Notes: generated by a model from the sequence alone, not told the origin. A DNA stretch of 64,000 bases from a virus (IMGVR_UViG_3300020213_000031); one strand, 5' to 3'; positions 1 through 56,301 are shown, counted from the stretch's first letter. A program made the numbers and translations.

Positions 1-193
1 GGAGCTTTTGTGGTGATATAGTACCTTCCTCATTTATAAATGGATTCACTTATATTACCACACATTCTTAGCATCCCAATGCTTCTTTCTCTCTCTTGCT
101 TATCTCCAAGGGATCGCATGGTGCCAGTGATTGCAGCATGTCTTTCGATTGCATGTGTTGTGTGTTGGCAGATGTGTGCAGCCTTGGGTGGAT

Positions 194-362
194 GTTCCAT
201 GTGTTCACTCACGATTGAATGCTGTGAGGGGTTGGCCTTCAGCGATGTTGAGCAGTCGAGGCATTGCCTGTGTTCCATGTGTTCACTCACGATTGAATGC
301 TGTGAGGGGTTGGCCTTCAGCGATGTTGAGCAGTCGAGGCATTGGCTGTGTTCCATGTGTTG
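194..362. repeat. 78-bp tandem direct repeat, about 2.2 copies (copy1 194-271, copy2 272-349, partial copy3 350-362)
   Basis: Unit gttccatgtgttcactcacgattgaatgctgtgaggggttggccttcagcgatgttgagcagtcgaggcattgcctgt recurs with 1 mismatch; seen directly. Confidence 0.85.
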
Positions 363-746
363 GTTGGCATTCTAATGCTGCGGGGAGTTAGCCTTCTGCG
401 ATGTTGTGCGCACAGATCCTTGTGTCATCTGAGTGGGATGTTGCGGGGTGTTGCGTAACGGAGCCAAGATAGATGGATGTGTTGGGAGGGTGTGGGGGCG
501 GTTGGGGGAGGTTAGAAGGAGAGGGGGTGAGTACACTCATCGAGAGCTGGTCGGCGAGGAACCTTACGGCAGATACCTTCGAGAATTGGGGAGAATGAAC
601 CCCAACGGGTGACATACTTCAGAGTCTCGGGCCAGTGCTCTGAATCGTCTTCTGTGATGTGTTTTCCATCCAGGTCGGAATGAAAGCCAGTTTTAAGTCG
701 TTTGGTTTTGATCGGAGTGAATAGATCCATTGCAGGAATTCTCTCA

Positions 747-998
747 TCAAAGTGAGGTAGAGTCACTGCTCTCAGATTTTTTAATGGTGTATGGCATTCT
801 CATGATCCACATCTCTTCTGCGCTGAAGTCTTCGAAGCAACGACACTTCTTTTCCTTTTCCATCCAGACGCCTCCCGAGTATAGGTTTTCAGGGTAGTCC
901 TTGCACCACTGGTCGCATTGACCGGCTTTGAAGGAGGCTTGGCATAGTTGACCGAGAGTGATCAGAATGAGTAAGGTCTTCATTCCTAATTGTATCAC
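747..998 (-). CDS. small secreted Cys-rich hypothetical protein (likely start at internal Met, MKTLLILI..)
   Basis: N-terminal hydrophobic signal-like segment then 6 Cys; no known motif. Confidence 0.3.
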   Translation of the reverse strand: MIQLGMKTLLILITLGQLCQASFKAGQCDQWCKDYPENLYSGGVWMEKEKKCRCFEDFSAEEMWIMRMPYTIKKSESSDSTSL

Positions 999-1077
999 CG
1001 CGTTAACTAATGGTGAATGTTGACATCACCTTTTTCCTTTGCTACACCTTATAAACCAACTTTTGAAGGAGATGAGC

Positions 1078-1260
1078 ATGAATCAACCCAACGATCCCCT
1101 GGTAAGGCTAGCTCGCGTAGAGCAAACGACTCAAAACCTGATCAACAACATCAATAATTTGCTGTCTGAGAACTCCAGGCTCAAGGCTCGCGTAAAGACC
1201 CTGGAGGTCGAGTGTGGCCTTGTGGCAGACGATTCAGGCGAAGATGACCTCGAAGGCTAA
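1078..1260 (+). CDS. small coiled-coil hypothetical protein
   Basis: ATG preceded by GAAGGAG at 6-7 nt spacing; heptad-like LxxNxxN pattern. Confidence 0.35.
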   Translation: MNQPNDPLVRLARVEQTTQNLINNINNLLSENSRLKARVKTLEVECGLVADDSGEDDLEG

Positions 1261-1657
1261 GCAGCCGTTAAGTGCCAGCCAGAGGCGAGCCATAGCGGCG
1301 AAACTGGAGCGTAGGAAGGCGAGGGACTCTTGGGCCGTCATGAAGCTAATGGTGCCGTGTGAGAAGAAAGAGAAGAAGGATCAAAATACTCGGTGAGCCG
1401 AAGACTGAGATGCCTGTACAGCCCATCAATATTCCGATAGTGAAGAGTATGGGGTATCATGGTGGTGGCGGGGACGACTTCTACCTCACTTCAGCATATT
1501 GCGACCGAGATCAGATTCAGTGGATTTATCATCGAGAAATCGCTCGCGGGTTGTCGACCCCCGAACGCATGAGGTGTGATTGCTGTGGTGCAGACTTATA
1601 CGTTTCTAAAAACAACGGTCAATTCATGTCGTCCACAACGATTCCAGAGGTCGTTGG

Positions 1658-2668
1658 ATGGGTAAGGCACGAGAGCAGCAAAATCCTAACCTTGGCCCTT
1701 ATCGAATCGAGCTTAGAGATAACAAGGGACGTTTTACCCGACTTTATTCGAAGGCACGATTTTTCAGGGCGTATTTCCAAAATAAAGCTATATCAAAGCT
1801 CCTACGCTTCCCCGATGGTTGGCTCGTCAAACAAAAACGAGCTTCTGTCGAACTTACAACTTCTCGACACACTAAGCGTTATTTTAAAAAAGAAAAAGAA
1901 GCTAAAGATCGTCGTAAGGGAAGAAAAGCTGGAAGAAAGCCCGCTGTTCGTAAGCCCAGCGTTGAGGAAGAAGCACGAGAAACAGTTGCGGAGCTACCTC
2001 GAGAACGCCCGGAGAATGTCATCCAAACGGAAGACGACGACTTCTTCTGGTCCAGAGTTGAAGCTCTCCGCGACCGACTTGAAGACATTGAGCGAATCCC
2101 TGGACAAGCATCTAAACTCATTTTTCCAATGGAAGCGTCGAGCAGGGGTGTCGCAGCCCATCCCATGAAGCGGCTGGATAAGAAGACGAACAAGTGGGTT
2201 GTCGACAGGGGAAATGTTTTTAAGCGACTTCTGAGTGGCGGGGCGAAGAAGAGGAATCTTATATGGTGGGCAGCGAAGACCTTTTTACAAAAGCTAGGAA
2301 CAAAATACTTCGAGACGGTGGCGCGTCGTACTTCCAAAAGAACTTTATCTTTCCGGGTGTTTCTAACGACAAACCTTCCAAAGCACGAGGAAGTTCTGAT
2401 GGCTCCAGCGGGAGTTCACAGCATAATTTACGATCGAGCGGTAACAAACAAAAAGCTAATGCTCGAAAGAATGACGAGCCAGTTGGTGGCAGGCATTATG
2501 CGCTCTCTCTACAAGGGCGAGGCTTATCCAGAACTGTCGCTAACGAGTTCAGGCGCATTCTTTCAGGTGATACCAGAGTCCGCGAAGTCGATTGGGAAAA
2601 GCTCGACAAAGACCCAGAACTTCAAGCTAGCCTTTACGATTTTCTTGGAAGAGGAATTCTCAAGATAA
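1658..2668 (+). CDS. basic (K/R-rich) hypothetical protein immediately upstream of and overlapping polB; terminal-protein candidate
   Basis: Positional analogy to TP genes upstream of protein-primed polB; overlaps alternative frame 1359-2168 and polB start; boundaries uncertain. Confidence 0.3.
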   Translation: MGKAREQQNPNLGPYRIELRDNKGRFTRLYSKARFFRAYFQNKAISKLLRFPDGWLVKQKRASVELTTSRHTKRYFKKEKEAKDRRKGRKAGRKPAVRKPSVEEEARETVAELPRERPENVIQTEDDDFFWSRVEALRDRLEDIERIPGQASKLIFPMEASSRGVAAHPMKRLDKKTNKWVVDRGNVFKRLLSGGAKKRNLIWWAAKTFLQKLGTKYFETVARRTSKRTLSFRVFLTTNLPKHEEVLMAPAGVHSIIYDRAVTNKKLMLERMTSQLVAGIMRSLYKGEAYPELSLTSSGAFFQVIPESAKSIGKSSTKTQNFKLAFTIFLEEEFSR

Positions 2669-4644
2669 CGAATATCCCCAAGATTCCCTGCCAATATGAG
2701 CCATCAGATAAATTGTATTTAGGCTTAGACACAGAGGACAACTCTAACGGGATTCCACACTTTTACCAGATTGCAACGAGAGATTGCGTTTATATCTGTT
2801 CAAGCTTTCGCGCTCTCTTCAGATACGTCATTCAAGAGTACAAACTCAATTATCGCAATCACGTTGTCTTTGGCACTAACATTGAGTACGAGCTTGGAAA
2901 TATTCTTAAAGACTTTGATGCAAGCCCGGAGACAATGGACATCAAATGGCGCAGGGGCAGGCTAACCAAGTTTGCTTTATCTTACGATCCAGAATTGGCT
3001 TATTGGGGCCGTGACGACGACCGCAAGGGTAAGATGGTTTTTTGGGATACGATGAACCATTGGCCTATGAGCGTCACCAAGATGGGTGAATCGCTAAAAG
3101 AGCATCTTGGCACCGATCTTACAAAACTAGATCGAGATTTCTATGGTTTCAAGTACGCCGCGATGGACGCGATCATTTCTAGGTCTTACGCCTGCATCCA
3201 GCGAGCATATTACGAGAAGAAGGGTATCAAGCTAAAGGCGACGCCAGGATCGACAGCTCTCTGCGTATACGATCAAGGGGTCGGCAAGACGAAGTTCCGC
3301 TCGGAGCGGATCAGGCAAACCCACACACCTGAAGACATTGAATGGATCATGGAGGGGTTACGAGGCGGCAGGACGGAAGTTTTCTCCACGCGAAAGCATT
3401 ACGGGAACGTTGAGTATCTGGACATCAACAGCGCCTATCCATTTTCGATGAAGCATGGAGTGTTCCCAAACCTCATGCAGCACTTCTGGATAGAAGGAGA
3501 TAAAGAAATCAGGGAGTGCATCGACGCCGATTACGAGGGGATGGTTGAATGTGACGTTGAGGCGATAAACCTTCACCCGTTCACGATGATTTACCCGTAT
3601 CTCGGATACAAGGACAACGATACGCAAAGATTCTTTTTCCCTCTCGGAAAATGGAAATCTAAATACACTTTCTTTGAAATCAGAAATGCGGAGAAGCTCG
3701 GATACAAGTTCAAGTTCAGAAAAGCGATCGTCTATGAAAGATGCAAGAAGCATCCATTCCAGAAGTACGTTGATTTTTGCTACGCGATCAGGATGGAGGG
3801 GGACGCAACGAAAAACAAACTCCTTAAAGACGTGGGCAAGTCTTTGGGAAATAATTTGTATGGTAAGTGGGGAGAGCGACAGATTTTCTCCACTCTGGTC
3901 GACCCAGGAAAGTATAATGCCGACGATTTAATCTCATGCGCCAGAATTGGAACAGGCGTTGTGATGGAAGAGGACGAGGGTTACGCCTCTCACACGAACG
4001 GGATTTGGGGTGCCTACATCACAGCAATTTGTCGTGACCTTCTTTATCAGCACATGGTTAGCGCGTGGAATGAAGGCAACGTGATTCTTTACGTCGACAC
4101 TGACGGAATCTTTATCACTGGCGGGAAATTGCCAAAGAATGATCCCGTCAAGCTTGGCGCCTTGAAGCATGAAGGCACTCTTTACTATTTCAGAGCGTAC
4201 TTGCCGAAGCAGTATGAGTATCAATATTTGGATGAGGCTACAGGCTTTGGACGCGTAAATCCAAAAACTGGAAAAACAGAAACAGTTTACAAAGCTAAAG
4301 GTATTCCAGAATTTTACGATATTGTGAATGAGAAAGGTGAAGCCATTCTCGATGCGAACGGGGTTCCAAAGAAGGGGAATTTACGGGAGAAGTTTTTCGC
4401 TACAGGGGAAGCGGACTTTAGGAAGCCGTTGAAGGTTCGGGAAGCGATACGTCGCAAGAAATTCAAAGACCCCAACATCAATCCTGGAATCGACGCGATC
4501 AACGCATGGATTTCTGTAAAGAAAGAGTTGCGCGGGCACCTTACAAAGAGGACGGTGCTCAAGAACGGCTGGACGCTGCCGCTTTGGATTTCAATGAAGC
4601 AGCCTGATTGGTACAGTCCCCCAGAAATGTTCTGTAAGGATTGA
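2263..4644 (+). CDS. family B DNA polymerase with 3'-5' exonuclease, protein-primed (phi29/PRD1-like) type
   Basis: Exo I YLGLDTEDN, Exo III YAAMD, motif A YLDINSAYPFSM (Dx2SLYP-like), motif B KSLGNNLYGKWG (Kx3NSxYG), motif C ILYVDTDGIFI (YxDTDS), KxY-like KQYEY. Confidence 0.85.
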   Translation: MVGSEDLFTKARNKILRDGGASYFQKNFIFPGVSNDKPSKARGSSDGSSGSSQHNLRSSGNKQKANARKNDEPVGGRHYALSLQGRGLSRTVANEFRRILSGDTRVREVDWEKLDKDPELQASLYDFLGRGILKITNIPKIPCQYEPSDKLYLGLDTEDNSNGIPHFYQIATRDCVYICSSFRALFRYVIQEYKLNYRNHVVFGTNIEYELGNILKDFDASPETMDIKWRRGRLTKFALSYDPELAYWGRDDDRKGKMVFWDTMNHWPMSVTKMGESLKEHLGTDLTKLDRDFYGFKYAAMDAIISRSYACIQRAYYEKKGIKLKATPGSTALCVYDQGVGKTKFRSERIRQTHTPEDIEWIMEGLRGGRTEVFSTRKHYGNVEYLDINSAYPFSMKHGVFPNLMQHFWIEGDKEIRECIDADYEGMVECDVEAINLHPFTMIYPYLGYKDNDTQRFFFPLGKWKSKYTFFEIRNAEKLGYKFKFRKAIVYERCKKHPFQKYVDFCYAIRMEGDATKNKLLKDVGKSLGNNLYGKWGERQIFSTLVDPGKYNADDLISCARIGTGVVMEEDEGYASHTNGIWGAYITAICRDLLYQHMVSAWNEGNVILYVDTDGIFITGGKLPKNDPVKLGALKHEGTLYYFRAYLPKQYEYQYLDEATGFGRVNPKTGKTETVYKAKGIPEFYDIVNEKGEAILDANGVPKKGNLREKFFATGEADFRKPLKVREAIRRKKFKDPNINPGIDAINAWISVKKELRGHLTKRTVLKNGWTLPLWISMKQPDWYSPPEMFCKD

Positions 4645-5218
4645 CACCAGATTTCTACCTGCTATATTTTCGTCTTGACCTGATAGGTCGTGCATCCGAG
4701 CACAAGTGATTTCCCTGGTTGGGAGTTGGAATGGAGTTCGATTCTCCGTTCCGGTCATGTCGGAGCCTATCGGGTCATTTTCTTCTTGCACATCACGATA
4801 AAACAATTGCGAACTTAGCGACGCGTGGATAGAGATACTCGGTTTGGTATTCTGGGAGTCGATCCCCGGCGAGTGTTGCAACTTTCTCAAATAACGCGTA
4901 GTGCCGATGCCTCTAGGTGGGTAGCTTCCAGCGAGGGCAAAGGCGCTTTGGGCAGTAAGGCAACTGCAAATTGTCCTTGGATACTTTGGGGTTCGACTCC
5001 CCTCCAACGCTAAGTTCATTTTCTTCTAGCATTTAATCACCATTATGATATGACCTACTTCTTCGTAGGTCGCGTGGAGCGGCTAACCCCTCGCCTGATA
5101 AGTGAGGCTCGACCATGTATTAAGAAAATTCGAATGTAGGGGCGACCACCTTGAAACTCGATAAGCCTAAACCTTTGGTCGGGTAGAGGCACTCCACACT
5201 AATTTTAAGGAGGCATTT

Positions 5219-5605
5219 GTGAGCAGACCTTTGTTCAAAGCAATCGAGTTGACCGTGATAGAAGCGCTTGAAGGTGTAAAGATCACCATCAAGGATTGGC
5301 GCGAGCTTGAGGACGACGAAAAAATGGTTGCCCTTTTGCTGGCATCAAATTTTGTCGGCCCCTTCGTAGACAAGTTGCAGGAATATTCCGGCTACCCAAC
5401 AGAGCTGATCGAGAAAACGTATAAGATTGCTCAAGAGAATAAAATTTGGGAAGGCGATAAAGTCACATCTTATAACCAAGAAGCGGGTAGCGCCTTGCTC
5501 GTCATTCACAGTTTGATCATGACAGGCATTGTTGAGCAAGTCGTGGAGAATGGTCAAGATAGGCTTTTAAACTCGCTCGATACGAAACCAGAAATCTTTT
5601 GCTAG
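5219..5605 (+). CDS. hypothetical protein
   Basis: ORF with GGAGG RBS upstream; no motif. Confidence 0.4.
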   Translation: MSRPLFKAIELTVIEALEGVKITIKDWRELEDDEKMVALLLASNFVGPFVDKLQEYSGYPTELIEKTYKIAQENKIWEGDKVTSYNQEAGSALLVIHSLIMTGIVEQVVENGQDRLLNSLDTKPEIFC

Positions 5606-5614
5606 GGAGATAAA

Positions 5615-6031
5615 ATGAATATTGCTCTTACATCGATAGGTATTTGGCTCGTGTTCTTTTTTGGTTGGCAATTGCGTGAGGAGTCAGTCAAGAGAATGCT
5701 CACGTCGTGGGATTTGGGTTCTCCGATTTTCTTTCTTTCGTTCGGAATGTTTGCCGCGATGGAACATCCAAGTTTCAGGGAGAGGGATCATATTGGATTG
5801 ATGGTCCCCAGCCTTCGAGTGGTTGAGGATTGGCGAAAAAGTTTTGGTTTTCTTTGGGTGCGCGTTGGGGTGAGAGACATGGGCGAGGCAGACATGTACC
5901 TTTACTACGAAAGAATTCACGCGATGGTGGAGGCGAGATATGCAACGATGGGTGAAAATTCGCGGGAAAATGAGACCATCGATCGAGTATCTAAAGACCC
6001 TCAAGACTATCCCCCATGCGGACACGCTTGA
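5615..6031 (+). CDS. hypothetical membrane protein
   Basis: Two N-terminal hydrophobic helices. Confidence 0.35.
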   Translation: MNIALTSIGIWLVFFFGWQLREESVKRMLTSWDLGSPIFFLSFGMFAAMEHPSFRERDHIGLMVPSLRVVEDWRKSFGFLWVRVGVRDMGEADMYLYYERIHAMVEARYATMGENSRENETIDRVSKDPQDYPPCGHA

Positions 6032-6814
6032 AGGCTGGGAGCTGAAGATGGAAAGCCCGCAGTACCGCATGAGATTTTGGTCGGGGTCTTGCATTAGCGG
6101 AAATGGGTTCATTGATTCTTCTTGCGTAGAATTTCTTTCGCAAGATGGATGGGTTCAATGTGAGTATTTTACTCGGGAGGACTATGGAACCGAAGCATGA
6201 GTGGCGAGATTTTGATTTTATGTATTACCATTCCAAAGGCAGAATGTTCAAAAAATTAATCTGCAAGAATTGCGGCGCAAGGGCGCGAAAGTTTGGGAGC
6301 GATATCGAGATTGAAGCAAGAAGCCTGGATAAGAAGACAATGAGGAATTGCTCGAAATGAAAACTAAATGTTGCTGTATTCGCGAGCGTTTGACGAAGGT
6401 TCTCGATGAATTGATTTTAGAAATTGATGAAACCTGTATAGAAGATTTCTCGCGCTTGCACCCACTTGTTTTGAAATCTTACGCGTTACTTAAAGAAGCC
6501 AAGCCGATGCTTGGACATTCTTGCAAGCCACTAACAACTGAAGAAGGAGTCTGTCTATGATCTGTAAACATTGCAAAAAAGAATTGCCCTCAATTTTCGT
6601 TGGAACCACCACAACTTGCACTTGCGACAAATGAACAAGCGTGAACAGGAAAAACTATTACGAGAGAGCGGATTTTTTATTAGGAAGATCGGCGCTAAAC
6701 ACACTATATGGACAAATGGAACAGACGATGTGGCAATCTCAAAGGGAAGTAAAGTCTCCCCTTGCACGCTACGATCTTTTAAATCAATCATGAGAAAGGC
6801 CAAGGCGAACGCTC

Positions 6815-7471
6815 TTGGATAGAAGTATGAGACAAACTTTATTGGCTATTGGCACATGGATCGTTTTAGGTTTTATCAGTCTTGTCGTGGGCTTTGTTTT
6901 TATCGCAATGTTTTCTGGCTGCACAGCCGCACCCAAAGAAGTTTCCGCGATCGTGACGGCAACATCAACAAGTACATCAACGAGCACGGACTATCAGGCG
7001 AGCTGGCCCCAAAAGGAGTACACTGAAATCCTTGTGAAGTCTCTCGACAATCACGGGCAAGCGCTTATGCAGTCCTACCCACCCGAAGTTTGCGGCGATC
7101 GTAAAAAATATTACGTTGCACTTATGTCCGCTCTAGCAGGCTTTGAGAGCAGCTTCGACACGAACGCTAAGTACACTGAAAACTTCAAAGACAACAAAGG
7201 GAAATATATTGTTAGCCGTGGCCTTTTTCAGATGTCGCTTGAAAGCTGCAATGGCAATTACGCTTGCGCCTTTAAGAGCGATAGCGAAATTCATGATCCG
7301 AAATTGGCGATTGTTTGCGCGGTAAAAGCAGCGAACAAGCTCGTCAATCGCGATGGCGTGCTTTACTCTGAATCGGCCCCATGGAAAGGGCTTAGCGCGT
7401 ATTGGGCACCTTTCAGAAACAAGGCAAAACGTGAAGCGATGATTGCAAAAGCAAAGGCGACCTGCAAATGA
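6815..7471 (+). CDS. lytic transglycosylase (SLT domain) lipoprotein
   Basis: Signal peptide + lipobox FSGC; SLT motifs AGFESSFD...GLFQMS...Y. Confidence 0.65.
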   Translation: MDRSMRQTLLAIGTWIVLGFISLVVGFVFIAMFSGCTAAPKEVSAIVTATSTSTSTSTDYQASWPQKEYTEILVKSLDNHGQALMQSYPPEVCGDRKKYYVALMSALAGFESSFDTNAKYTENFKDNKGKYIVSRGLFQMSLESCNGNYACAFKSDSEIHDPKLAIVCAVKAANKLVNRDGVLYSESAPWKGLSAYWAPFRNKAKREAMIAKAKATCK

Positions 7472-7761
7472 AAACAGTAAGAGCGAATTTGAATTATTTT
7501 GTGGAGAGTGGAATCCACACGAGAGCTAGCGAGGATGGCGAGCTTGTCGACATTTCTTACATGGCTAAGGAAGCGCTTGAGGCTTTGAACGGTCAGGAGC
7601 TTGAGACAGCTATGAAGGTTTTCGATATGATCGTGACGACTATCAGGAGCAGTCCAGCTCATCCAGGCAACCCACATGATTGGGATTTTGTAGCGAAGAG
7701 GATTGAAAATATGAAAAATGTGTTCCCGTCTCTTTTCAACAGCGTAATTGGAGGAAAATAG
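7468..7761 (+). CDS. hypothetical protein
   Basis: ATGA overlap with upstream gene; no motif. Confidence 0.35.
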   Translation: MKTVRANLNYFVESGIHTRASEDGELVDISYMAKEALEALNGQELETAMKVFDMIVTTIRSSPAHPGNPHDWDFVAKRIENMKNVFPSLFNSVIGGK

Positions 7762-7978
7762 TGACTTATTCATATCACATTGACGGCCCGCTACCTCTCA
7801 GCGGGAAATATATTGTAAGCAGGCACTCTGTCCTCAACAATGGAACGATGATCTTCGACAAGGAACTCAATCCAAAGACTTTGGAGTTTGTTCGAGACAA
7901 TGGGATGTGCGACAATTTTTTCCTCAATCCAATCTCGGCGGCGAATGCTTTAGCTACAGCGTTGGGTCGGGAGGCGGA

Positions 7979-8242
7979 ATGAAAATCGCAATTCTAAAAT
8001 GCCGTGATTGCGGAGAGGTTTTGAATGAGACGGAGCCATTTCCAGATAAGGAAGAAGGCAGAGTCGCCGTTTCCAGCGGCCTCGCGGCTGGCCCATGCCC
8101 CAAGGGTTGCCGATCCACGTTTTCGGATTTGAACATGAATACGACACTTGAAGTGAGGAGCGTAGACGATGAATCAGGAAAAAGATTGTTTCGGCAGGCC
8201 AGTAATATTGAACCATCAGTTGCGACGCAAACACCTCGTTGA
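7979..8242 (+). CDS. Cys-rich zinc-ribbon hypothetical protein
   Basis: CRDCGE...CPKGC pattern; ATGA start overlap. Confidence 0.35.
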   Translation: MKIAILKCRDCGEVLNETEPFPDKEEGRVAVSSGLAAGPCPKGCRSTFSDLNMNTTLEVRSVDDESGKRLFRQASNIEPSVATQTPR

Positions 8243-18155: not shown

Positions 18156-18953
18156 GTGAAATTTTTTAAATTGTTTTTGTTTTTAGGACTTGTTCCGTTT
18201 CTAACCGCTTGTGGCGTTGAGCAGATCGACGAAGGCTATCGCGGCGTCTATCAGCGCTGGGGAGCTGTAGAGGGCGATCCTCTTTTGCCTGGGATATATT
18301 TCTACAACCCAATCTCTGGCAACATTATGGAACTCCCCGTCCTTGAGCAAAAACTCAACGGCACGACGGAAAGCTTCACGGTGGACAACCAGAAAGCCCA
18401 CGTCACATACGTCTTGACGTTTCGCCCTCGCCCGGAAGTTCTTGGGAAGCTGTACGCCTCTGCCGGTAAAGGCTGGGCCGATCAACTCATTCCTCAAGTT
18501 GTCCTCGGGGCGATGAAAGACTCCATCGGACAGATTGAAGCCAATGACTTGGTTCGTAAACGTGAACAAGTCACGATGAACGCGCAAAAGAAAATCGGTG
18601 AAGCCCTGGAGCCTCGTGGCGTGTTGGTTACTCGATTGGATTTCGTCAATCTGAACTTTGAGCCTGAATACGAGAAAGCCGTAGAGGCAAAAGTTACGGC
18701 GATCCAAAACGCGAATGCTGAAAAGAATCGCACCGTTCAAATCAGGGAACAAGCAGCCCAAACGGTATTGACCGCAGAGGCCGCAGCTCGCGCCATGCAA
18801 ATCCAGACGGCTGCCCTTCAGCAGTCTGCGTCCCTGGTCGAGTATGAGCGCGTGAAGAAGTGGGATGGCAAGTTGCCCGATATGTTGATCATGGGCGGTG
18901 GTTCAGCCACGCCGATTATCGACATGAGCGGAGCTTTGGGTCGTAAGAAGTAA
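18156..18953 (+). CDS. SPFH/band-7 (prohibitin/HflC-like) domain lipoprotein
   Basis: Lipobox LTAC; SPFH-like core with long C-terminal coiled coil (AEAAARAMQIQTAALQQSA). Confidence 0.65.
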   Translation: MKFFKLFLFLGLVPFLTACGVEQIDEGYRGVYQRWGAVEGDPLLPGIYFYNPISGNIMELPVLEQKLNGTTESFTVDNQKAHVTYVLTFRPRPEVLGKLYASAGKGWADQLIPQVVLGAMKDSIGQIEANDLVRKREQVTMNAQKKIGEALEPRGVLVTRLDFVNLNFEPEYEKAVEAKVTAIQNANAEKNRTVQIREQAAQTVLTAEAAARAMQIQTAALQQSASLVEYERVKKWDGKLPDMLIMGGGSATPIIDMSGALGRKK

Positions 18954-19723: not shown

Positions 19724-20458
19724 GTGAACTTTATTGCAGATGTAGCGGGGAGATACGAGCCGGTTAAGAAGCTTCTGGCAGCGATGCCTCAAGAACGTAC
19801 CTTGTTCCTTGGCGACCTTATCGATCGCGGGCCTCAGTCTCGAGAGGTTGTGGAATTGGTTCGTTCAAAGTACGAGTGCCTGCTCGGCAACCACGAGCAC
19901 CTGTTTATTTCCTTCGTCCGCAATGATGGGAAATATGGAAACACCTGGATGATGAATGGTGGCGGCGCCACGATGGATTCCTACTGCAACAGCAGCAAAG
20001 TCGATGCAATCGTAGCCGGGGTCATGAACGAGCACACCGATTGGATGGACAAGCTGCCACTCTTCGTCGAGACGGATCACGTTTTCGCGAGCCATGCCCC
20101 GTGGTCGGCTCACGAAGATTTTGAGCATGTACAGAAAATTTGGCTTCCTCCGATGGCGCTCTACCCTCACGAGAGATGCAATCCATCGTCCTTGATTTGG
20201 AATCGTCGCGATCCATGCCTACGAAGGTTCAAAGACGCTGACGGGTTGAGCGCCGCACCGTTTGACAAGGTGAAGCTTCAGGTATTCGGGCACAACAGCG
20301 AGCTTAAGCCTCAGCATTTTAATGAAGAGGACGACGATGGAGTTACCATACCGTTTGCGATGGGGATCGATTGTTCGAGAGCGAAAGTTGTGACAGGACT
20401 TCACGTTGACGACGAATTCGGATTGCACAAAGTTACCATTTACCAAGAATCTTACTAG
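19724..20458 (+). CDS. PPP-family Ser/Thr protein phosphatase (calcineurin-like metallophosphoesterase)
   Basis: GDLIDRG and GNHE motifs. Confidence 0.75.
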   Translation: MNFIADVAGRYEPVKKLLAAMPQERTLFLGDLIDRGPQSREVVELVRSKYECLLGNHEHLFISFVRNDGKYGNTWMMNGGGATMDSYCNSSKVDAIVAGVMNEHTDWMDKLPLFVETDHVFASHAPWSAHEDFEHVQKIWLPPMALYPHERCNPSSLIWNRRDPCLRRFKDADGLSAAPFDKVKLQVFGHNSELKPQHFNEEDDDGVTIPFAMGIDCSRAKVVTGLHVDDEFGLHKVTIYQESY

Positions 20459-25968: not shown

Positions 25969-26045
25969 GGCCCAGTAGCTCAGATGGTCAGAGCGGCTGT
26001 TTTCAACTCAGTGCGTCGCGGATTCGAATTCCGCCTGGGCCTCCA
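25969..26045 (+). tRNA. tRNA with anticodon UCA (opal/UGA-reading; tRNA-Sup or Trp/other-UCA), CCA encoded
   Basis: Perfect 7-bp acceptor GGCCCAG/CTGGGCC, D-arm GCTC-AGATGGTCA-GAGC, anticodon loop TTTCAAC (U33, A37), T-arm GCGGA-TTCGAAT-TCCGC, discriminator U, CCA. Confidence 0.8.
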
Positions 26046-40098: not shown

Positions 40099-41337
40099 AT
40101 GGCGTCAGCAGCAGTAAATACACAGCGGCTTTTGGAGACTTTCCACGGTATTCAGGGCGGACGCTACGACCCTTCCGTTCAAAGCACTCAGGGTAGCGCT
40201 GGCACGATTTTTATTCAGTTGCCGCCCTTTGGTCTAAGCACTCCGTTTGCCTTGTGGCAAAAACAAGACAATGGAAACACAACCAATTGGGCTGAGATTT
40301 CCGCCAGCTCGACGGGAATTACTGATTACAAAGCGCCAGTAAACCTTGCATCCACGGCAGACGTTCCGCTCTCTGGTGGCGCCGCTCTGTTGATTGATGG
40401 TGTAGCCGTAGCCAACGGCAATCGCATCTTGCTCAAAGACCAAGCCACTGCAAGCCAAAACGGAATTTACATCGCCAGCGGAATCGGCACGGCTTATCTC
40501 TTGACTCGCGCTCCTGACGCAAATACTTCGGCTGAAGTTACACAAGGTATGTTTACCTGGGTGATGTTCGGCTCCACGAACCTCGAGACCGGCTGGATTT
40601 TGACCACGCCGAACCCGATCACGCTTGGCACGACTGCGTTGACGTTTGTGGAGATTCCGATTCCTGGTCTAACATCTGTTGGAGCATTCGACACACAGCC
40701 GCCTTCGGTTGATGGTGCCGTAATTGTTGGTAGCAGTATTTTCTTTCAATCCATGAATGGCGGCGCAAGCCCTGTGGGGATGCTGAATTCTGGTTCACAA
40801 AACCTTGTCGGCGATAAGAGCTTCTCTCAGCCTATCCAGTTTTTCAACCAGGGCGTAACACCACCATCTCCCGCAGGTGGCACGGCGGAAATTTATTCCA
40901 ACGTTTCCGAATTGATGGAGCAACAAGACTCCGCAGGAAATATTCGCATCGTAAACGGTATCGTCCAAGACACAGCCGTGGACATCGTTACGGCTCCAGC
41001 ATTCATCAACTTCATTGGCGCAAACTCTGTTGTAGCGAACGGTCTTGGCGTCGATGTCGACGTGACGGCTGCGGTTGGAGCAACTTGGGATCGCGAAACG
41101 TTCGTTATCGCGGCGCCCGACATTGTAAACGGCTACCTCGATCTCGCCAACACAGCAATCGATGATTCCGTAAATCCGACTCCCCAAGGTTCCGGCCCCC
41201 TCATCGGCGGCTCGATCGCGGCGGGTGACGACTTTGAAATGTCGATCGTCGGCCCAATTACTCGTGTGACCTTCTCTCCAGCCGTAGTGGCTGCCTGGGT
41301 TGTTGGTCAAAGAGTTCAAGTTCAGTACCAGTTTTAA
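40099..41337 (+). CDS. fiber/receptor-binding-like virion protein
   Basis: Ser/Thr/Gly/Ala/Asn-rich beta composition; position in fiber block. Confidence 0.4.
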   Translation: MASAAVNTQRLLETFHGIQGGRYDPSVQSTQGSAGTIFIQLPPFGLSTPFALWQKQDNGNTTNWAEISASSTGITDYKAPVNLASTADVPLSGGAALLIDGVAVANGNRILLKDQATASQNGIYIASGIGTAYLLTRAPDANTSAEVTQGMFTWVMFGSTNLETGWILTTPNPITLGTTALTFVEIPIPGLTSVGAFDTQPPSVDGAVIVGSSIFFQSMNGGASPVGMLNSGSQNLVGDKSFSQPIQFFNQGVTPPSPAGGTAEIYSNVSELMEQQDSAGNIRIVNGIVQDTAVDIVTAPAFINFIGANSVVANGLGVDVDVTAAVGATWDRETFVIAAPDIVNGYLDLANTAIDDSVNPTPQGSGPLIGGSIAAGDDFEMSIVGPITRVTFSPAVVAAWVVGQRVQVQYQF

Positions 41338-41350
41338 ATAGAGGTAATTT

Positions 41351-44300
41351 ATGAGTGACGGAAAAATTCTTCAGCGGTATCAGCCCTACGCTCCTGCCAC
41401 TCCGACCAATTACCCTGGCACGACTCCTGTAAACAATCAGGAAGCTCTCGACTCGGCTGTGGCGATGCTCAATCTCGCAAACGCTCAAATTTACGTTGAT
41501 GCGGCTGCTGGATCAGATGTAACCGGAACAGGTGCGCAGCTTCGTCCGTTTCAAACGATTGAAGCGGCTCTTGCCGACGCTGTAGCTAAGCCGGTCGGCA
41601 ATTATACCTTGATGCTTGCCACTGGCAACTATGGAGTCGGGCCTATAGCTTGGCCTGTAAGCGCAGGAAAAAATATCTCCGTAGAAGGTGTCGGTTTGAA
41701 CTCAGGAATTTCCGCGCCGATAACTTATACCGCTATCGGTGGCGTAGATGAGGAAAACGTAATTTTCTTCAACTTGGGAATCAACGACTTTACGGCTGAT
41801 CTTACCGCCGCCGCAGGAAAATCGGCTGCGATCACATTTGGAAATTGTGGTGTTACCATCACTCGTGCAGACACTCTCGGCATTGGAGCACAAGTCGTTA
41901 GATTGTTTAACTGCCTCCTGACGGGAGTGGATACTTCTAGCACGATGCTTCTAACAGGATGCCAATACATTGGTGGATCGATCACCGTTCGAACGGTGAA
42001 TGGTAAACTTCTCACTTCTTCCACTCTGGTTGCTGGCTGTCCTGCTTTTACTGTAGAGGCTGGAGCTTTCGCTGGGCTGTTTGCATCTTCAACCGCATAC
42101 GCAAACCTCATTGTTGATGGAACTCTTCGCATCATGGGATGCGATACCGAAAATACTTTTACCATCTCTGGCCTCGGCACCCTCGATATCGACGCTGCCT
42201 CTTTGAAACTCGCCCCAGTGCCAACCACGGCAACCGTTACGTTGTTGGATGATGCTCAATATGTTGAGTTTAATCCAACCGCACCCGGTTCATGGCCGGT
42301 GGGAACAGATCAAGTCGCAGAAGCCCTCGATTATCTCGTTGGTCTCGGCAACGGCGACATGAAGCGCAACTCCTTCGTGTTTCAGCCTGGAGGCGTTTCG
42401 AGTGGAAATACTTTCGCTACTTGGGCGGAAGTAATTGCAGCTATCGCTGTTGATGCTGGTCCCAAAACGATTTATTTTGATGACTCCATTGTTTCTCCGG
42501 CAGTCATCCCTGCTGGGGTTTATGCGCTCGAAGAAGTTACATTCGATAATGCTAAAGAAGGACAAGACACTTTCGTAGAAGTCGCAATTGGTGTTAGCTG
42601 GACAGGGTTGTTTGCTATAAACAATATTCAGGTCAACTTCCTCAATACCGCCGTTGTTGAATCTATCTCTGGCCGACTGCTCCAGTTCAACGGAAGCACG
42701 ATTACTGCAAACGGCACTTCACCCATTTGGGATATTGTTGGTTTCGCTCTTATCCAATCTCGCTTTGGCTCAGGCATCAACGGTAGCGCCACCGCCGCTG
42801 CTATAAGCATCGCTGCTGGTCAGACCCTACTTTATTTGATGGTCAACTTCAGCAATGTGAACGCCACAGCAATTATCGGTGGAGTGACTGAAAGTCTCAC
42901 CCTAGTCTATGGTGACTCTTCTCCGCAATTTACTGCACAATCGGGTTTCACCGGAACTCTCACCACTCAGCTTCTCACGCAAGCTCAGTTTGAAGGCTAT
43001 ACTCCGACAACTCCAGGCGATTGGAGTCCAGCGCCTTCCGATGTTGGTGGCGCTCTCGATCAATTGGCTGCAAACGCTTCTGCTGTAGTGCCTACAGTAT
43101 TCGTGTTTCAAGATGGTGGTGTTGCAAGCAAGAACGTCTACGATACCTGGGCCGCCCTCTATGCGGTGCTCTCGACCGTAGCTGGCCCGAAGATTGTCGA
43201 AATCGACGATTCCGTTACAAGTCCTTGCGTGATTCCTGCGGGAACCTACGACGTGGCAGATGTGACTTTCGTATCCAAGAATTATACGTTCTCGGCTACG
43301 CCAATTTTGCATCTTGCCGACCTCTGCGTTCTCGACAATCTCACCCACATCTCGGGCGGATTGTTTGTTGAATCGCAGTCGACCGCTCCTGTTGCAGTAT
43401 TCACGGCTGGCGTCCACAAGATCACCATCGACGGACAAGCTAGCCTGCGTGGTATTCTTGCTGGCGTGCCCGTAATCGATGTAAGTGGGACTGCAATCCT
43501 CGGAATGTCAATTTCCAACAACAGCGCACTCGGCTTGAAGTCGATCACCACAAGCGGTACAGGCCAAGTGCAATTGCTCATGTGGAACACAGCTCAAGTT
43601 GTTACCGATGCCGTTGAAGGCAACGGAGCTATCAGCGTGTCCTATGATGCTGGATCGAATTATTCCACGACACAAACTAATTTCACCGGAGCATTTGGCT
43701 CAGCGTTCTTCGATAATGCCCCTCAAGTTGGATATTCGCCTTCGGCGGCTGGAAACTGGCTCGTATCTCCGACTCAAGTGAAGGCTGCTTTGGACGAGCT
43801 TTCCCATCGAGAACCTTCTACGTTTGTTTACCAAGAAGGTGGCACTACAGGTAAAAATGTGTTCGCCACCTGGGCCGAAGTAATGGCGGCGATTTCAGCA
43901 GCCGGTGAAGGGCCGAAAACGATTCTAGTAGACTCCACTTTCACAAGTCCTTGCGTTGTTCCTGCTGGCTCTTACAGTCTGATTCAAGTGACGTTCAAGG
44001 CTCGCGACAATGGAAGCGTCCTTGAGTTTGCTGACAATGCTACTATTTCAACAAATTTTGTTGGTGTAGAAGGTGGATTGACTTTACGCTCGGTATCCAC
44101 CGTGGCGGTAATGGAAGTTTCAGGGTTTGAGACAATCTTTGTCGATAAGATTTCTGAGATTTCCTCAACCATCTTCCCGTTCTTCCATGTGAACGGCGGC
44201 GGCCCAACGCTAAACCTTATCGTTTCCGAAAACTCTTCGTTGTCCAACGCTGGCGCGGCAGTAGTAGACGTAGACGCAACTGGTGTAGCGAATATTTACA

Positions 44301-44614
44301 GCTACACAGGCTCTACGATTGCTAACGGAACATATTCTGGAGCAGGCACTATTACTGTCGTCAGAGATGCTTCACCGAGCAGAATTCCCGGCACGATATC
44401 TGGCGCTCAAGCAACAGCGAAACAGATTGATTTAGGGGTTCTCGTAAATCAAGCTACCGTGATCTTCACTATTCAAGGTTTGAGCGGTTTGACTTATAGC
44501 TTTGATTACACCTTGACCGATGGGGCGACCAGCACCGTGATTGATTGGACCGGCTTAGGGCTTGACGGTGTTATTCTCGGTGGCGAGAACTATAATATTC
44601 AATACAGAGCATAA
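41351..44614 (+). CDS. large (1087 aa) spike/fiber protein with three internal about-240-aa repeats (beta-helix-like)
   Basis: Repeats PGxW..P..V..ALD.L...FV(F/Y)Q.GG....N.(F/Y).TWA......GPK.I..D.S..SP.V(I/V)PAG.Y at about 42240, 42990, 43690. Confidence 0.55.
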   Translation: MSDGKILQRYQPYAPATPTNYPGTTPVNNQEALDSAVAMLNLANAQIYVDAAAGSDVTGTGAQLRPFQTIEAALADAVAKPVGNYTLMLATGNYGVGPIAWPVSAGKNISVEGVGLNSGISAPITYTAIGGVDEENVIFFNLGINDFTADLTAAAGKSAAITFGNCGVTITRADTLGIGAQVVRLFNCLLTGVDTSSTMLLTGCQYIGGSITVRTVNGKLLTSSTLVAGCPAFTVEAGAFAGLFASSTAYANLIVDGTLRIMGCDTENTFTISGLGTLDIDAASLKLAPVPTTATVTLLDDAQYVEFNPTAPGSWPVGTDQVAEALDYLVGLGNGDMKRNSFVFQPGGVSSGNTFATWAEVIAAIAVDAGPKTIYFDDSIVSPAVIPAGVYALEEVTFDNAKEGQDTFVEVAIGVSWTGLFAINNIQVNFLNTAVVESISGRLLQFNGSTITANGTSPIWDIVGFALIQSRFGSGINGSATAAAISIAAGQTLLYLMVNFSNVNATAIIGGVTESLTLVYGDSSPQFTAQSGFTGTLTTQLLTQAQFEGYTPTTPGDWSPAPSDVGGALDQLAANASAVVPTVFVFQDGGVASKNVYDTWAALYAVLSTVAGPKIVEIDDSVTSPCVIPAGTYDVADVTFVSKNYTFSATPILHLADLCVLDNLTHISGGLFVESQSTAPVAVFTAGVHKITIDGQASLRGILAGVPVIDVSGTAILGMSISNNSALGLKSITTSGTGQVQLLMWNTAQVVTDAVEGNGAISVSYDAGSNYSTTQTNFTGAFGSAFFDNAPQVGYSPSAAGNWLVSPTQVKAALDELSHREPSTFVYQEGGTTGKNVFATWAEVMAAISAAGEGPKTILVDSTFTSPCVVPAGSYSLIQVTFKARDNGSVLEFADNATISTNFVGVEGGLTLRSVSTVAVMEVSGFETIFVDKISEISSTIFPFFHVNGGGPTLNLIVSENSSLSNAGAAVVDVDATGVANIYSYTGSTIANGTYSGAGTITVVRDASPSRIPGTISGAQATAKQIDLGVLVNQATVIFTIQGLSGLTYSFDYTLTDGATSTVIDWTGLGLDGVILGGENYNIQYRA

Positions 44615-51794: not shown

Positions 51795-52975
51795 TTGACC
51801 TCCTCCCCATGCCTAAAGGCAGGGGATTCCCTTAAGCGACGTTAGCCGCTCTTAGCGTATCAAGTCCGATACGGAGGATATTTTTTGCGGCGTTAACATC
51901 TCTGTCGTGTTGACAGGAACACTCGCTGCAAATCCATCCTCTAATTCCAAGACCACTTGGTCCGCTCGGTCCAGTCTTTTTAAGACAAGAAGAGCAAGTG
52001 ATCGTAGAAGCAAACTCTGATACATCAACAACCAACCCCTGGTGCCTTATGGCTTTTTGCTTCAGGATCTGGCGGAACATTCCGGTAGATGCATCTTGTG
52101 AACTTTTACCATGCGACGCTTGCAGGAACTTCCCGCTTACGTCGCCAACAAATATTGTTTTATACTTTCTGGCTAACTCCAAAGTTTTCTTGTGCAGAAA
52201 GTCTTTGCGGATATTTTTAATCTTTGCAGACAGCTTTTGCGCCTGTCTTTTCTTTCGGTGTCTCTGAAAACCGGCCAGCTTATTCTCATGCTTTAAAAAG
52301 ATTCTAGGGTTTTCAACTTTGCTACCGTCGCTTAACACAGCGATATCTTTCAATCCTAAATCAACCCCAACAGCGTCGATTGCGTGGCTTGTTTCGATAG
52401 TGGGAGTTTCAGCGACTAAGTTAATATACCAGTGGCCCCGAGCATCTTGCGAGAAGGAGCCGCACTTGATCTTACCTGGCAGGTCCCGTGACTTCCAGAA
52501 CTTGAAAGCTTGCTTGGCGTAGGTAGCTTTATTGCCATCAATTTTTACACCGGTTGCTTTAAAGGGCACCCAGCCTAGAGACTTCTTTGACCCGCTAGAT
52601 GCCCGCCAGCGAAGTTTTCTCTTCTTAAATTGTATTCTGCGGGTTGCGTACTCTTCTCCAATCGCCTGAACTGTTTGCGAATGAAGCCCTATCTCTTTCC
52701 CGGCACCTGCGGTCAAGTAGTTGAGGTCAAAACCAGATAGGAAGTCCGAGTGATTTCTAATGGCGTTGAAGCTTGTTTCGTTGCAGAAATTCCACACAAA
52801 GTTAACCGATTTAGAAAGGGCAGAAAGCTTTCTACAAGAGAACCCTCCCTTAATTCGGTAGCGATATGTTAACATCATGGAAGCCTTGTAACGTACAATG
52901 TCGATAGAGTCAAGAAGGAAGTACGCCTTATATCCCCACGCCTAAAGGCGGGGGTTTTACGGCGGCGCTGATAAA
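51795..52975 (-). mobile_element. IS200/IS605-family element carrying only tnpB (IS1341-like); boundaries approximate
   Basis: Imperfect subterminal hairpins CCCCATGCC-TAAA-GGCAGGGG (51805-51825) and CCCCACGCC-TAAA-GGCGGGGG (52934-52954) flank tnpB. Confidence 0.6.
51832..52878 (-). CDS. tnpB: TnpB (IS605 OrfB) RuvC-like RNA-guided nuclease
   Basis: RuvC-I GVDLGLKDIAV, RuvC-II-like FVGDVS, zinc finger CSSC...CSECSC, RuvC-III HDRDVNAAKNI. Confidence 0.8.
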   Translation of the reverse strand: MMLTYRYRIKGGFSCRKLSALSKSVNFVWNFCNETSFNAIRNHSDFLSGFDLNYLTAGAGKEIGLHSQTVQAIGEEYATRRIQFKKRKLRWRASSGSKKSLGWVPFKATGVKIDGNKATYAKQAFKFWKSRDLPGKIKCGSFSQDARGHWYINLVAETPTIETSHAIDAVGVDLGLKDIAVLSDGSKVENPRIFLKHENKLAGFQRHRKKRQAQKLSAKIKNIRKDFLHKKTLELARKYKTIFVGDVSGKFLQASHGKSSQDASTGMFRQILKQKAIRHQGLVVDVSEFASTITCSSCLKKTGPSGPSGLGIRGWICSECSCQHDRDVNAAKNILRIGLDTLRAANVA

Positions 52976-53161
52976 GTAAGCGCCTGCGGTGGTGGCGACG
53001 ATCCATCCCCAGGTGCTCCACATGCTTATGTAGTCGCAGAAACAACTTGGCTCAGCCATTTATTTCCAGCTCCCACCTTTTCCGCTCAAGCTCATCGCGC
53101 ATCTGTCTTCGCCGCCCAACGCCAATAAAGTGAAGAGCCTTAGAATCGCATCGATCTTGGA

Positions 53162-53458
53162 TCATAAAATATTCCAATCCTCACGAGAGGAGAAGTCTTC
53201 ATGCGTCCTGATTTTAATGGCTAGAGTCTCTATCGCAGGAACAAACAAGGCTTGATTTTCCTGCGCCCTAGAGAACCATCGCATCACGCGAACGTACACA
53301 GACAACTTCTCGTGATGCCCAAAACGCTTGATTTTTCGAATGGCGGCGTCATGCCACTCATCCGATCCAACGGGGAACGTAATCTTGGCAATCTCTTTGG
53401 CTGTATCGAAATAGTTGGAACAGCATTCCTCGGGACTACGTTTGATGTCGAGTTTCAC
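53162..53458 (-). CDS. hypothetical protein
   Basis: ORF only. Confidence 0.35.
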   Translation of the reverse strand: MKLDIKRSPEECCSNYFDTAKEIAKITFPVGSDEWHDAAIRKIKRFGHHEKLSVYVRVMRWFSRAQENQALFVPAIETLAIKIRTHEDFSSREDWNIL

Positions 53459-53712
53459 TTCTTTACCATTGAATCGCGACCGTCGATGTACGCCGTTCGC
53501 TGGTTGATGTTAATCTCGGTTGCGAGACCCAAGAGATTTGCCATCGTTCCACCAGTGGCGTGTGCTGATGCGCCGGTTGAATGATTGACGGCCAGGATAA
53601 ACTGATAGCCCTTTGCTTGGAGCAGCTCACCAAAAGGGATGATGAGGTCTTCAAGCTCTTTTTCTTGTTCGTTGCGGAGGTCTTTTTCGATTCGCTCATT
53701 TTGAAATGCTCC

Positions 53713-53907
53713 TTAAATCTTGATCGACTCAATATCCCGATCGAAAATTGTCTTTCGACCGTCTTTCCTCGCGTTCTCAATCGCTTTATCGAGAACAACC
53801 CTGATGAGATTGGACAAGGCTTCTGGCGCCGCTCCGCTCGTGTTCATGCTGCCCTTGTTCTTGATGTATGCTTTCACCTTTGAAACCGTGACCAAAACTT
53901 CGCTCAT
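53713..53907 (-). CDS. histone-fold protein (archaeal/bacterial HMfB/HBb-like histone)
   Basis: 64 aa; ...LSNLIRVVLDKAIENARKDGRKTIFDRDIE aligns to the histone-fold L2/alpha3 signature A..AGRKT...DIE; AAGGAG RBS. Confidence 0.55.
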   Translation of the reverse strand: MSEVLVTVSKVKAYIKNKGSMNTSGAAPEALSNLIRVVLDKAIENARKDGRKTIFDRDIESIKI

Positions 53908-53924
53908 TGTCCTTCTCCTTTGTT

Positions 53925-54370
53925 AATGGTGTACCCGGCGAGAATCGAACTCGCGTCCTAAAGTTTTTTCATTCTACAGTCGACATGTTTTTGCGCCCAA
54001 GGCGACACCGAAGTGTCGGGTGGAGATTAAAATCTAGGGGTCTTTCAACCCCCAGACCAGGGCGACCGATTTCTCGGCCACCTCCACCAACCAGATTCTT
54101 ACGATAAGCTCTGGCAAGCTCCCTGCACTTTCCTTCTTGCGAAGTGGACTGCACTACCATTTTTGCCTTTCTTCTTTAACTGGCGCTCAGGCGGCACCAC
54201 AGTCTTCCGTTTTTAGGCGGCGAACTGAAGAGCCGTAGCATTGCTGCCACGGTTCTTGCGAATCACGAAAGATTCAGCATTTACATTTGCGTCCAGATGA
54301 TAACTCAACAAGTACGCCTCTGAGACATGCAGTAGAATTTCCAAACTCCAGTCGAAACCAATTCGGGCAC
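53925..54370 (-). ncRNA. ssrA: tmRNA (ssrA)
   Basis: 5' GUGCCCGAAUUGGUUUCGACUGG and 3' GGACGCGAGUUCGAUUCUCGCCGGGUACACCA match the tmRNA tRNA-like domain; acceptor GUGCCCG/CGGGUAC pairs; internal ORF ending ...ALQFAA-stop. Confidence 0.85.
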
Positions 54371-54610
54371 TTTTAAAATCAACTGAAGAGAGAAGTACCG
54401 GCTGCTCTTAACGCTGGGCCAGCGCAGAGCTTGGCTTGACTCGCATTAATCTTGTACTTCAAAAACCGAACTCTCAAATTGCCTCGATCGACCACCTGCC
54501 GGTCCTCGACCAAACCAACTGCAAGCACTTCTTCTCTCCTCAATTCATTTCAAAATCGTCTAAACACCATTAACATTTCCAAAAAAATAAGCAAGAAATA
54601 TTTCTTACTT

Positions 54611-56047: not shown

Positions 56048-56262
56048 TCGGAATATCCGCTCAGGTAGTCGCTGATGGACTTGATGTTTCGGATGGAAAT
56101 CGAAAGTTTCTTGCGATGCTCTGGGTCTGGCAACGAATCGACAAACGTGGACAGATCATCTTGAATGTGCTTTAGTTTTTTGTGCTCTTTGATTTGTTTG
56201 AAGTAAAGCAAATTCATGGTCAAACACCAATACCAATTCTGTTAGCCGATGCAAGCAAAATT

Positions 56263-56271: not shown

Positions 56272-56301
56272 CTTTATAACGCACCTTGTCCAGGAGGCTC
56301 C

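Follow-up and report, generated by a model that had tools for sequence, protein, structure and literature searches.

Long out-of-frame overlaps among three replication genes, one of them for a phi29-type DNA polymerase, in a family of phages with inverted terminal repeats

[quoted passage not shown] The present study concerns the replication module of a virus (IMGVR_UViG_3300020213_000031), of which a stretch of 64,000 nucleotides (nt) was analysed (the window; gene coordinates are counted from window base 1) and in which three open reading frames (ORFs), designated gene A, gene B, and pol, overlap one another. As in phi29 (genes 3 and 2), PRD1 (genes VIII and I), and the Bam35-like tectiviruses, a PF03175 pPolB gene stands just after a basic gene of about 250-340 amino acids (aa), near one end of a linear genome with inverted terminal repeats (ITRs). 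However, B and pol overlap by 406 nt in the window, a third gene overlaps the candidate TP gene by 511 nt, the polymerase carries a 150-aa N-terminal extension, the genome is 68 kb long compared with about 15-20 kb, and the B protein is unrelated to the phi29 TP in sequence and predicted fold. Judged from its sequence, the arrangement is a conserved triple overlap of replication genes in uncultured phages that form a new family, bear ITRs, and encode a phi29-type polymerase. Neither this group of phages nor a comparable TP/pol overlap in any phage was found described in literature searches.

Partial likenesses exist in other systems. In the adenovirus E2B region, the pTP ORF shares about 200 nt at its 3' end with the 5' end of the Pol ORF, which is read in another frame. 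This resembles the window in the out-of-frame overlap from TP to polymerase and in the protein-primed, ITR-bearing genome, but the virus is eukaryotic and its mRNAs are spliced, fewer nucleotides overlap, a third gene is absent, and neither protein is detectably related to A or B. In phiX174 A/B/K/E and lambda Rz/Rz1, long stretches are likewise dual-coding out of frame, with separate starts and suppressed synonymous variation; these are cases of tiny genomes or lysis genes, whereas here three replication genes are chained in a 68-kb genome, at deep divergence and where space is not limiting. The pPolBs of fungal and plant linear plasmids also have extra N-terminal sequence before Exo I; the extension in the window differs in being short, one third disordered, and devoid of invariant Ser, Thr, or Tyr, and a separate candidate TP gene is present. 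A preprint describes the hepatitis B virus P gene as a layout of TP, spacer, and reverse transcriptase domains (bioRxiv 10.1101/2022.02.16.480762). The hepadnavirus P protein is similar as a protein-primed polymerase with a disordered, poorly conserved spacer opposite a constrained overlapping gene (preS/S there, B here), and constraint is divided in the same way between the pol spacer (residues 34-85) and the C-terminal domain of B, but it is a reverse transcriptase and not a PolB, and its TP is fused to the polymerase whereas the candidate TP here is encoded by the overlapping gene.

Three overlapping genes and their dual coding

The three genes of the window are as follows.

Gene A: 1410-2168, plus strand; frame 3, ending in TGA; 252 aa from the ATG, or 269 aa from an alternative GTG at 1359
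Gene B: 1658-2668, plus strand; frame 2, ATG to TAA; 336 aa, K/R-rich
pol: 2263-4644, plus strand; frame 1, ATG to TGA; 793 aa

The order from A through B to pol forms a -1/-1 cascade of out-of-frame overlaps, all on the plus strand. Altogether, 305 of the 336 B codons are shared with A or pol, so that 91% of the gene is embedded, and 31 codons (2169-2262) belong to B only. An earlier note on this DNA had described a three-frame cascade at 1359-4644 with overlaps of several hundred nt at each step; the cascade proved to be real, the ORFs sit where that note placed them, and the overlaps were measured as 511 and 406 nt. One point was corrected: frame 3 is open to 2168 and not only to about 1700. 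The observation was therefore confirmed, while its interpretation was partly supported and most of the explanations that it proposed were not.

The pol product was assigned by profile, homology, and structure searches. It matched Pfam PF03175 (DNA_pol_B_2) with 101.9 bits (cut-off 25.8, E 5e-29) and PHROG 1907 'DNA polymerase' (E 6e-33), and the sole tblastn matches among deposited phages were the polymerases of Bam35, GIL16, AP50 (tectivirus), and Methanosarcina spherical virus, at 25-28% identity. An AlphaFold2 model was obtained with a predicted local distance difference test score (pLDDT) of 84.7. Its best PDB matches by Foldseek were phi29 DNA polymerase chains (E 1e-24 to 1e-21, template modelling score, TM(target), 0.67-0.73), and the next best were the RNA-primed archaeal PolB and E. 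coli Pol II (E 1e-9, TM about 0.3). The pPolB motifs, namely Exo I, II, and III and motifs A (Dx2SLYP), B (Kx3NSxYG), and C (YxDTDS), were all found. Exo I is LGLDTED (D156 at nt 2728; DTED at residues 156-159), Exo II is N206..Y209-E210 (the last residue is D in most homologues), and Exo III is Y298-x3-D302. Motif A, YLDINSAYPFSM, starts at nt 3415 (YLDINSAYP at 385-393), motif B comprises GNNLYGKWG after K526 (nt 3838; KSLGNNLYGK at 526-535), and motif C is YVDTDG (nt 4090-4107, residues 610-615). Most motif residues were invariant in 27 sequences. The motifs quoted in the earlier note, including the DTE of Exo I, were thus all in place, and its assignment to the protein-primed phi29/PRD1 type was borne out: by sequence and model the polymerase belongs to the protein-primed clade, RNA-primed PolBs being far weaker matches. 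With 587-675 columns against 562-572 phi29 residues, the structural alignment with phi29 would have to take in the regions of TPR1 and TPR2, the insertions specific to pPolBs (PMC4889955).

The extension before Exo I had been described as about 150 aa of low-complexity sequence. The length was correct; in the model, a disordered spacer (residues 34-85, nt 2362-2517, pLDDT <50) separates a helix (residues 4-17) from a folded mini-domain (residues 88-150, pLDDT 82-96).

The protein search returned 76 pol homologues, one of which (P0010, 1002 aa) contains an intein with a LAGLIDADG endonuclease (PF14890, PF14528). A metagenome scan, contig look-ups, and a genome scan yielded 18 usable loci with 44-72% pol identity. 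The gene A ORF and the A/B overlap were conserved in all 18, and the complete cascade, in which B stands directly upstream of pol, overlaps it, and follows A in an unchanged -1/-1 order, was present in 16, with overlaps of 507-672 nt (A/B) and 400-468 nt (B/pol). The closest relative (L003/L004, 72% pol identity) has the same three ORFs, their frames are offset identically, and its B is also exactly 336 aa long. In the two remaining loci, L010 and L018, B and pol lie side by side without overlap. Since a rough neighbour-joining tree places these two within the family and since the overlap is absent, and pol shorter, in more distant pPolB elements (L022-L026), the overlap probably dates from the origin of the family and was lost on two occasions, the polarity being taken from the rough tree. 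In L010, a 78-aa ORF with a predicted transmembrane helix (5660-5896) lies between the well-separated B and pol. No relatives were found in the IMG/VR scan, and no DNA match to window 1-8000 was found among deposited phages. Two related contigs (L080 and L081) were binned in metagenome-assembled genomes labelled 'uncultured Pseudomonadota' and 'uncultured Methylococcus sp.', which is a weak hint of host range.

Indels introduced by assembly or sequencing could split one long ORF into three frames, as the earlier note had considered. Beyond the look of the frame shifts nothing favours this, and it deserves virtually no credit. Two independent Logan assemblies from two SRA runs (L001 and L002) were 100% identical to window 699-7899 and 699-5560, respectively, over 7.2 and 4.9 kb that include the whole A-B-pol region, and the same -1/-1 offsets recur in relatives with as little as 44% pol identity, whose sequences come from many samples and several assemblers. 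The base-identical independent assemblies and the shared architecture of diverged relatives therefore indicate that the cascade is not an indel artefact.

Next, the openness of the overlapping frames was compared with expectation by fixing the B amino acid sequence and resampling its synonymous codons 2000 times with the codon usage of the non-overlapped part of pol. For the A frame over B, 3.5-16 stops were expected and none was seen (P(open) <=0.02 in each of 13 loci); for the pol frame over B, 7-18 were expected and none was seen (P(open) <1/2000 in each of 11 loci). No stop interrupted either of the claimed frames in 15 loci, whereas the third plus-strand frame had 12-25 stops over A/B and 6-19 over B/pol, and all minus-strand frames of the overlaps contained stops. 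By these statistics, the cascade is far beyond chance.

Variation at third codon positions gave the same picture. Between the window and L003, third-position identity was 0.41-0.42 in single-coding DNA and 0.66-0.68 for B in both overlaps. In four closely related pairs it was 0.66-0.71 in B/pol, 0.60-0.68 in A/B, and 0.41-0.52 in single-coding DNA, and in two more divergent pairs the values were lower and noisier. The third position of B corresponds to the second position of A and the first position of pol, and the B wobble positions that are second codon positions of A were 0.68 identical between the window and L003. A graded measure was obtained from B codons that specify the same residue in these two sequences, as follows.

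B opposite the folded mini-domain of pol: third-position identity 0.88
B opposite the N-terminal helix of pol: 0.72
B opposite the spacer of pol: 0.61
B-only stretch: 0.59
B opposite A: 0.69-0.78
Single-coding pol and A, same-residue codons (baseline): 0.45-0.50

The constraint on B third positions was thus graded with the conservation of the partner frame, and together with the codon phase it points to selection on the amino acids of the overlapping products. A per-region profile showed that the genes divide the constraint between them: in the first 150 nt of the overlap, the conservation of A equals that of its N-terminal domain, and pol is conserved at 2265-2309 and from 2535 onward, B being conserved instead between these regions. 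Where the two genes lie apart, in L010 and L018, the C-terminal motifs of B (LTSSG ... NFK.AF) and the N-terminal motifs of pol (M.C..IF; EFR..LS ... LQ..LY) are both retained, on separate DNA, indicating that both frames encode real protein. The confident structural model of B and the partly folded N-terminal extension of pol, both described in this text, also favour dual coding.

It might still be argued that each overlap holds one real coding frame, the second being open by composition or chance, as stops are made less frequent by the richness in purines and Lys of part of the A/B overlap, and P(open) reached 0.02 in one locus. Against this, about eight independent lineages keep both frames open while the third frame accumulates 6-25 stops, the wobble constraint in B follows the conservation of the overlapping protein, and L010 and L018 encode B and the N-terminus of pol apart from each other. 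The chance explanation is accordingly close to refuted, and both long overlaps are, on these comparisons, genuinely dual-coding and ancient in the family.

The N-terminal domain of the gene A product contains three invariant Cys residues, C31, C56, and C59 (C-x24-C-x2-C), and no family was detected for it. The K/S/L-rich tail, which is encoded over the first half of gene B, is poorly conserved; one conserved patch in it lies opposite the disordered linker of B.

Probable separate translation of A, B, and pol

The sites that bear on how B and pol are translated are listed below.

B start: Shine-Dalgarno (SD) sequence AGAGGT at 1646-1651 and ATG at 1658 (site 1646-1660), plus strand; inside the conserved A codons for 'PEVVGW'
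pol start: SD sequence GAGGA at 2251-2255 and ATG at 2263 (site 2251-2265), plus strand; inside gene B
A_AAA_AAG heptamer: 1886-1892, plus strand; in the A frame, a candidate for a possible -1 slip site from A to B

Each of the three genes has a ribosome-binding site and a start codon to itself. Upstream of the B start codon (ATG; GTG in L020), GGAG(A/G)T or AGAGGT was found at a distance of 6 nt in 12 of 13 loci, and the B frame opens 5-16 codons before the start. SD-like sequences also precede the pol start in most loci, where the pol frame opens 3-13 codons upstream (13 in the window), or up to 35 with GTG starts. The N-terminal motif of pol, M-V-D-C-x-x-I/L-F, starts at the start codon throughout the family. 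No conserved RNA structure was found around the B start. No slippery heptamer was conserved between B and pol, and four loci (L008, L011, L016, and L017) have no heptamer there. Because B and pol have their own SD sequences and starts, because their frames open just upstream, and because no B-pol heptamer is conserved, we conclude from the sequence comparison that the three genes are most simply read as three independent initiations.

Programmed -1 frameshifting, beside or instead of separate initiation, would produce A-B fusions, B-pol (TP-pol) fusions, or both. Both steps of the cascade are -1, and A_AAA_AAG occurs in the A frame of the A/B overlap in the window and in similar form in most relatives, though not in L016. 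These A-frame heptamers, however, lie at non-homologous positions within a Lys-rich stretch, and the step from B to pol has no conserved heptamer and, in four loci, none at all. An open overlap of 400-600 nt is not needed for frameshifting, the C-terminus of B is conserved up to its stop codon, and the starts of B and pol stand just after the opening of their frames. Frameshifting is therefore quite improbable as the general mechanism; as a route to pol, which the earlier note had proposed, it found no support, and neither it nor a TP-pol fusion is needed to explain the locus. Occasional slippage from A to B is possible.

Gene B as a terminal protein candidate

The gene B product was predicted by AlphaFold2 (18 sequences) to be a confident alpha/beta protein (pLDDT 80, predicted template modelling score 0.58) with a K/R-rich disordered linker at residues 92-117. 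Its invariant residues are G164 and S297, the latter being the only invariant residue with a hydroxyl group. S297 (nt 2546-2548) belongs to the motif LTSSG, lies 40 residues from the C-terminus in a predicted loop (coil 289-300, pLDDT about 69), and was invariant in alignments of 13 and of 18 sequences. An invariant Ser would be necessary, though not sufficient, for a TP role.

A full HMMER pass over 1.84 billion representative proteins returned 21 B homologues, and a word-index search of 5.8 billion clusters returned only a protein identical to B. B was found only next to this pol family. Pfam, PHROG, and structure searches gave no family or fold match, and there was no B match among deposited phages. 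Gene callers report either A and pol, or B and a pol truncated to 637-645 aa. The small number of representatives is explained by this loss of one of the three genes or truncation of pol, and the absence of B from almost all annotation by its 91% embedding in neighbouring frames.

In the more distant elements L022-L026 (contigs of 4-18 kb), a basic gene of 195-247 aa lies just upstream of pol, and a small Zn-finger gene lies further upstream. The basic gene shares with B the motifs 'GRFTKF', 'RMSPK', and an N-terminal 'R(D/N)K.GR(F/I)(T/R)K', and its C-terminal 'RMSPK' is followed by a strand, compared with 'LTSSG' in B. Homology of B to this gene was not supported by hhalign, and the resemblance is a lead only.

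From its position, its size, its basic linker, and its invariant serine, and by analogy with phi29 and PRD1, B would be the best TP candidate. This is closest to the first option of the earlier note, a TP gene overlapping pol, which turns out to be one half of a double, deeply conserved dual-coding arrangement; its choice of the middle ORF as TP candidate was reasonable. A fusion of TP and polymerase, as in linear plasmids, did not hold up: the N-terminal extension is only 150 aa, one third of it is disordered, and it contains no invariant Ser, Thr, or Tyr, its near-invariant residues being only Q121, L124, P139, and I141. The extension was therefore rejected as a fused TP.

Alternatively, B may be another replication accessory protein, for example one that binds DNA or organises the origin, and the primer may be A, another gene product, or the pol N-terminal extension. 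B has no similarity to any known TP, TPs are too diverse for recognition by sequence, the overlap evidence is silent on function, and A itself combines a basic tail with a Ser (S100) that is nearly invariant. Yet this A tail is poorly conserved, the lack of an invariant hydroxyl residue speaks against the pol extension, and B occupies the canonical TP position with an invariant Ser in a C-terminal loop. A TP other than B is thus unlikely, although it retains appreciable weight, and B is kept as the TP candidate in what follows.

Genome ends, surroundings, and proposed model

The features outside the cascade that bear on the genome ends and on translation are as follows.

Left ITR: 1-728, no strand assigned; inverted terminal repeat
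Small upstream gene 1: 1072-1260, plus strand; coiled-coil-like (ORF list and translation)
Small upstream gene 2: 1244-1396, plus strand; basic (ORF list and translation)
tRNA with anticodon UCA: 25969-26045, plus strand; opal suppressor (selenocysteine tRNA according to ARAGORN), of normal size, with an encoded CCA end, just before the late-gene block

No ITR was found inside the window; it was located through the right end of a sister contig of 67,878 bp. The right 15.5 kb of this contig (L082) were 99.7-99.9% identical to window 52945-64000, and its last 124 nt were the exact reverse complement of window 605-728, the identity collapsing after 728. L082 extends 3389 nt past window base 64000; with the 604 nt of missing repeat this gives 3993 nt, which equals 67,993 - 64,000, and the longest contig carrying this pol is 67,993 bp. 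In addition, Logan assemblies L001 and L002 start at 699, that is, 30 nt (k-1, with k=31) inside the 728 boundary. The end match, the length arithmetic, and the Logan break together point to a linear genome of 67,993 bp with 728-bp ITRs, supporting the ITRs that the earlier note had suggested looking for at the ends, and the window is, by this reconstruction, the left 94% (bases 1-64000) of a linear phage genome. Inside the left ITR, three tandem copies of a 78-nt unit (window 193-426; 100%, 99%, and 67% identity) may form a candidate origin or TP-binding array, and none of 10 candidate ORFs in the ITR was present in the protein collection.

The replication module starts about 340 nt inward of the left repeat. 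It opens with the two small genes, which overlap each other by 17 nt, are followed by gene A, and are conserved in L003/L004 (by blastn, window 1067-1223 is similar to L003 564-719). The distance from pol to one contig end is 0.7-5.5 kb in all large related contigs examined (21-78 kb). The left ends of L013 and L078 (34.7 and 56.3 kb) nearly coincide over the first 80 nt and share CTTTCCCACCCCCC, which suggests that the two contigs extend to the same physical end of the genome. No helicase or primase was detected by Pfam among 20 of the larger ORFs of the window.

The TGA that ends gene A had been linked in the earlier note to the opal-suppressor tRNA. Recoding of TGA by this tRNA was rejected, as in-frame TGA is absent from long genes and pol, like many other ORFs, terminates in TGA. 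The stop of A varies among relatives (TGA, TAG, or TAA) and TGA acts as an ordinary stop in the window; the tRNA is therefore unrelated to the cascade.

Elsewhere in the window, a full-length match to transfer-messenger RNA (tmRNA; Rfam RF00023, 67.2 bits, E 5e-24) that was missed by ARAGORN was found at 53927-54370 on the minus strand; a tmRNA is unusual in a phage genome. About 1 kb from it, at 51835-52878 on the minus strand, a 348-aa transposase (PHROG 506, E 6.5e-66) may represent an insertion element within the phage genome. The presumed structural block (25984-47928, plus strand) has almost no Pfam or PHROG matches: the only ones were tail-fibre-like and tail matches at 40099-44614, and no terminase, portal, or major capsid protein was recognised in the block by these searches. 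The early region encodes an SPFH/Band 7 protein (18156-18950, plus strand, E 6e-25) and a calcineurin-like phosphoesterase (19724-20455, plus strand, E 9e-11).

The best explanation of the whole, to which we assign a probability of roughly 0.65, is a 67,993-bp phage with ITRs in which A, B, and a phi29-type polymerase are translated separately from a cascade of overlapping genes and B serves as the TP. In such a phage, Ser297 of B, in an exposed loop near the C-terminus, would supply the hydroxyl group that primes DNA synthesis at both ITR ends. The N-terminal helix and mini-domain of pol, which are specific to the family, could be docking surfaces for B, A, or both, and the disordered spacer could be a filler tolerated opposite the tightly constrained C-terminal domain of B. 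The nested genes would put three products on one mRNA, and ribosomes translating an upstream gene would cross the next start site, which would link expression.

Several points weigh against this explanation. A, B, and pol are known here from sequence alone, and the support for the A tail consists of frame maintenance and suppressed variation at B wobble sites. B resembles neither the phi29 TP nor any viral model in sequence or fold, its predicted alpha/beta structure contrasts with the helical phi29 TP, and hhalign gave a probability of 0.6%, which is not significant, for B against the basic gene upstream of pol in the distant pPolB elements. As for the right ITR, 124 nt were seen directly in the sister contig, and the other 604 nt come from the arithmetic and the assembly-graph break. 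The roles given to the pol N-terminal extension and the translational linkage are conjecture.

In summary, the locus is a clean and deeply conserved case of long dual coding in a large double-stranded DNA phage, affecting core replication genes in a genome that has no need to save space. One gene of the three is systematically missed, or pol truncated, by standard gene callers. Gene B would be a new TP candidate with a specific predicted priming residue, S297. A more far-reaching proposal, that the 91%-embedded B is a new kind of TP in an undescribed lineage of 52-78-kb ITR phages and that the chained overlaps tie together the synthesis of A, B, and pol, is tentative and, in our estimation, rather doubtful. 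In a global survey, protein-primed replication was confined to genomes smaller than 50 kb (PMC4889955). The genomes of this family, at 68 kb with ITRs and with related contigs of up to 78 kb, would exceed that range.

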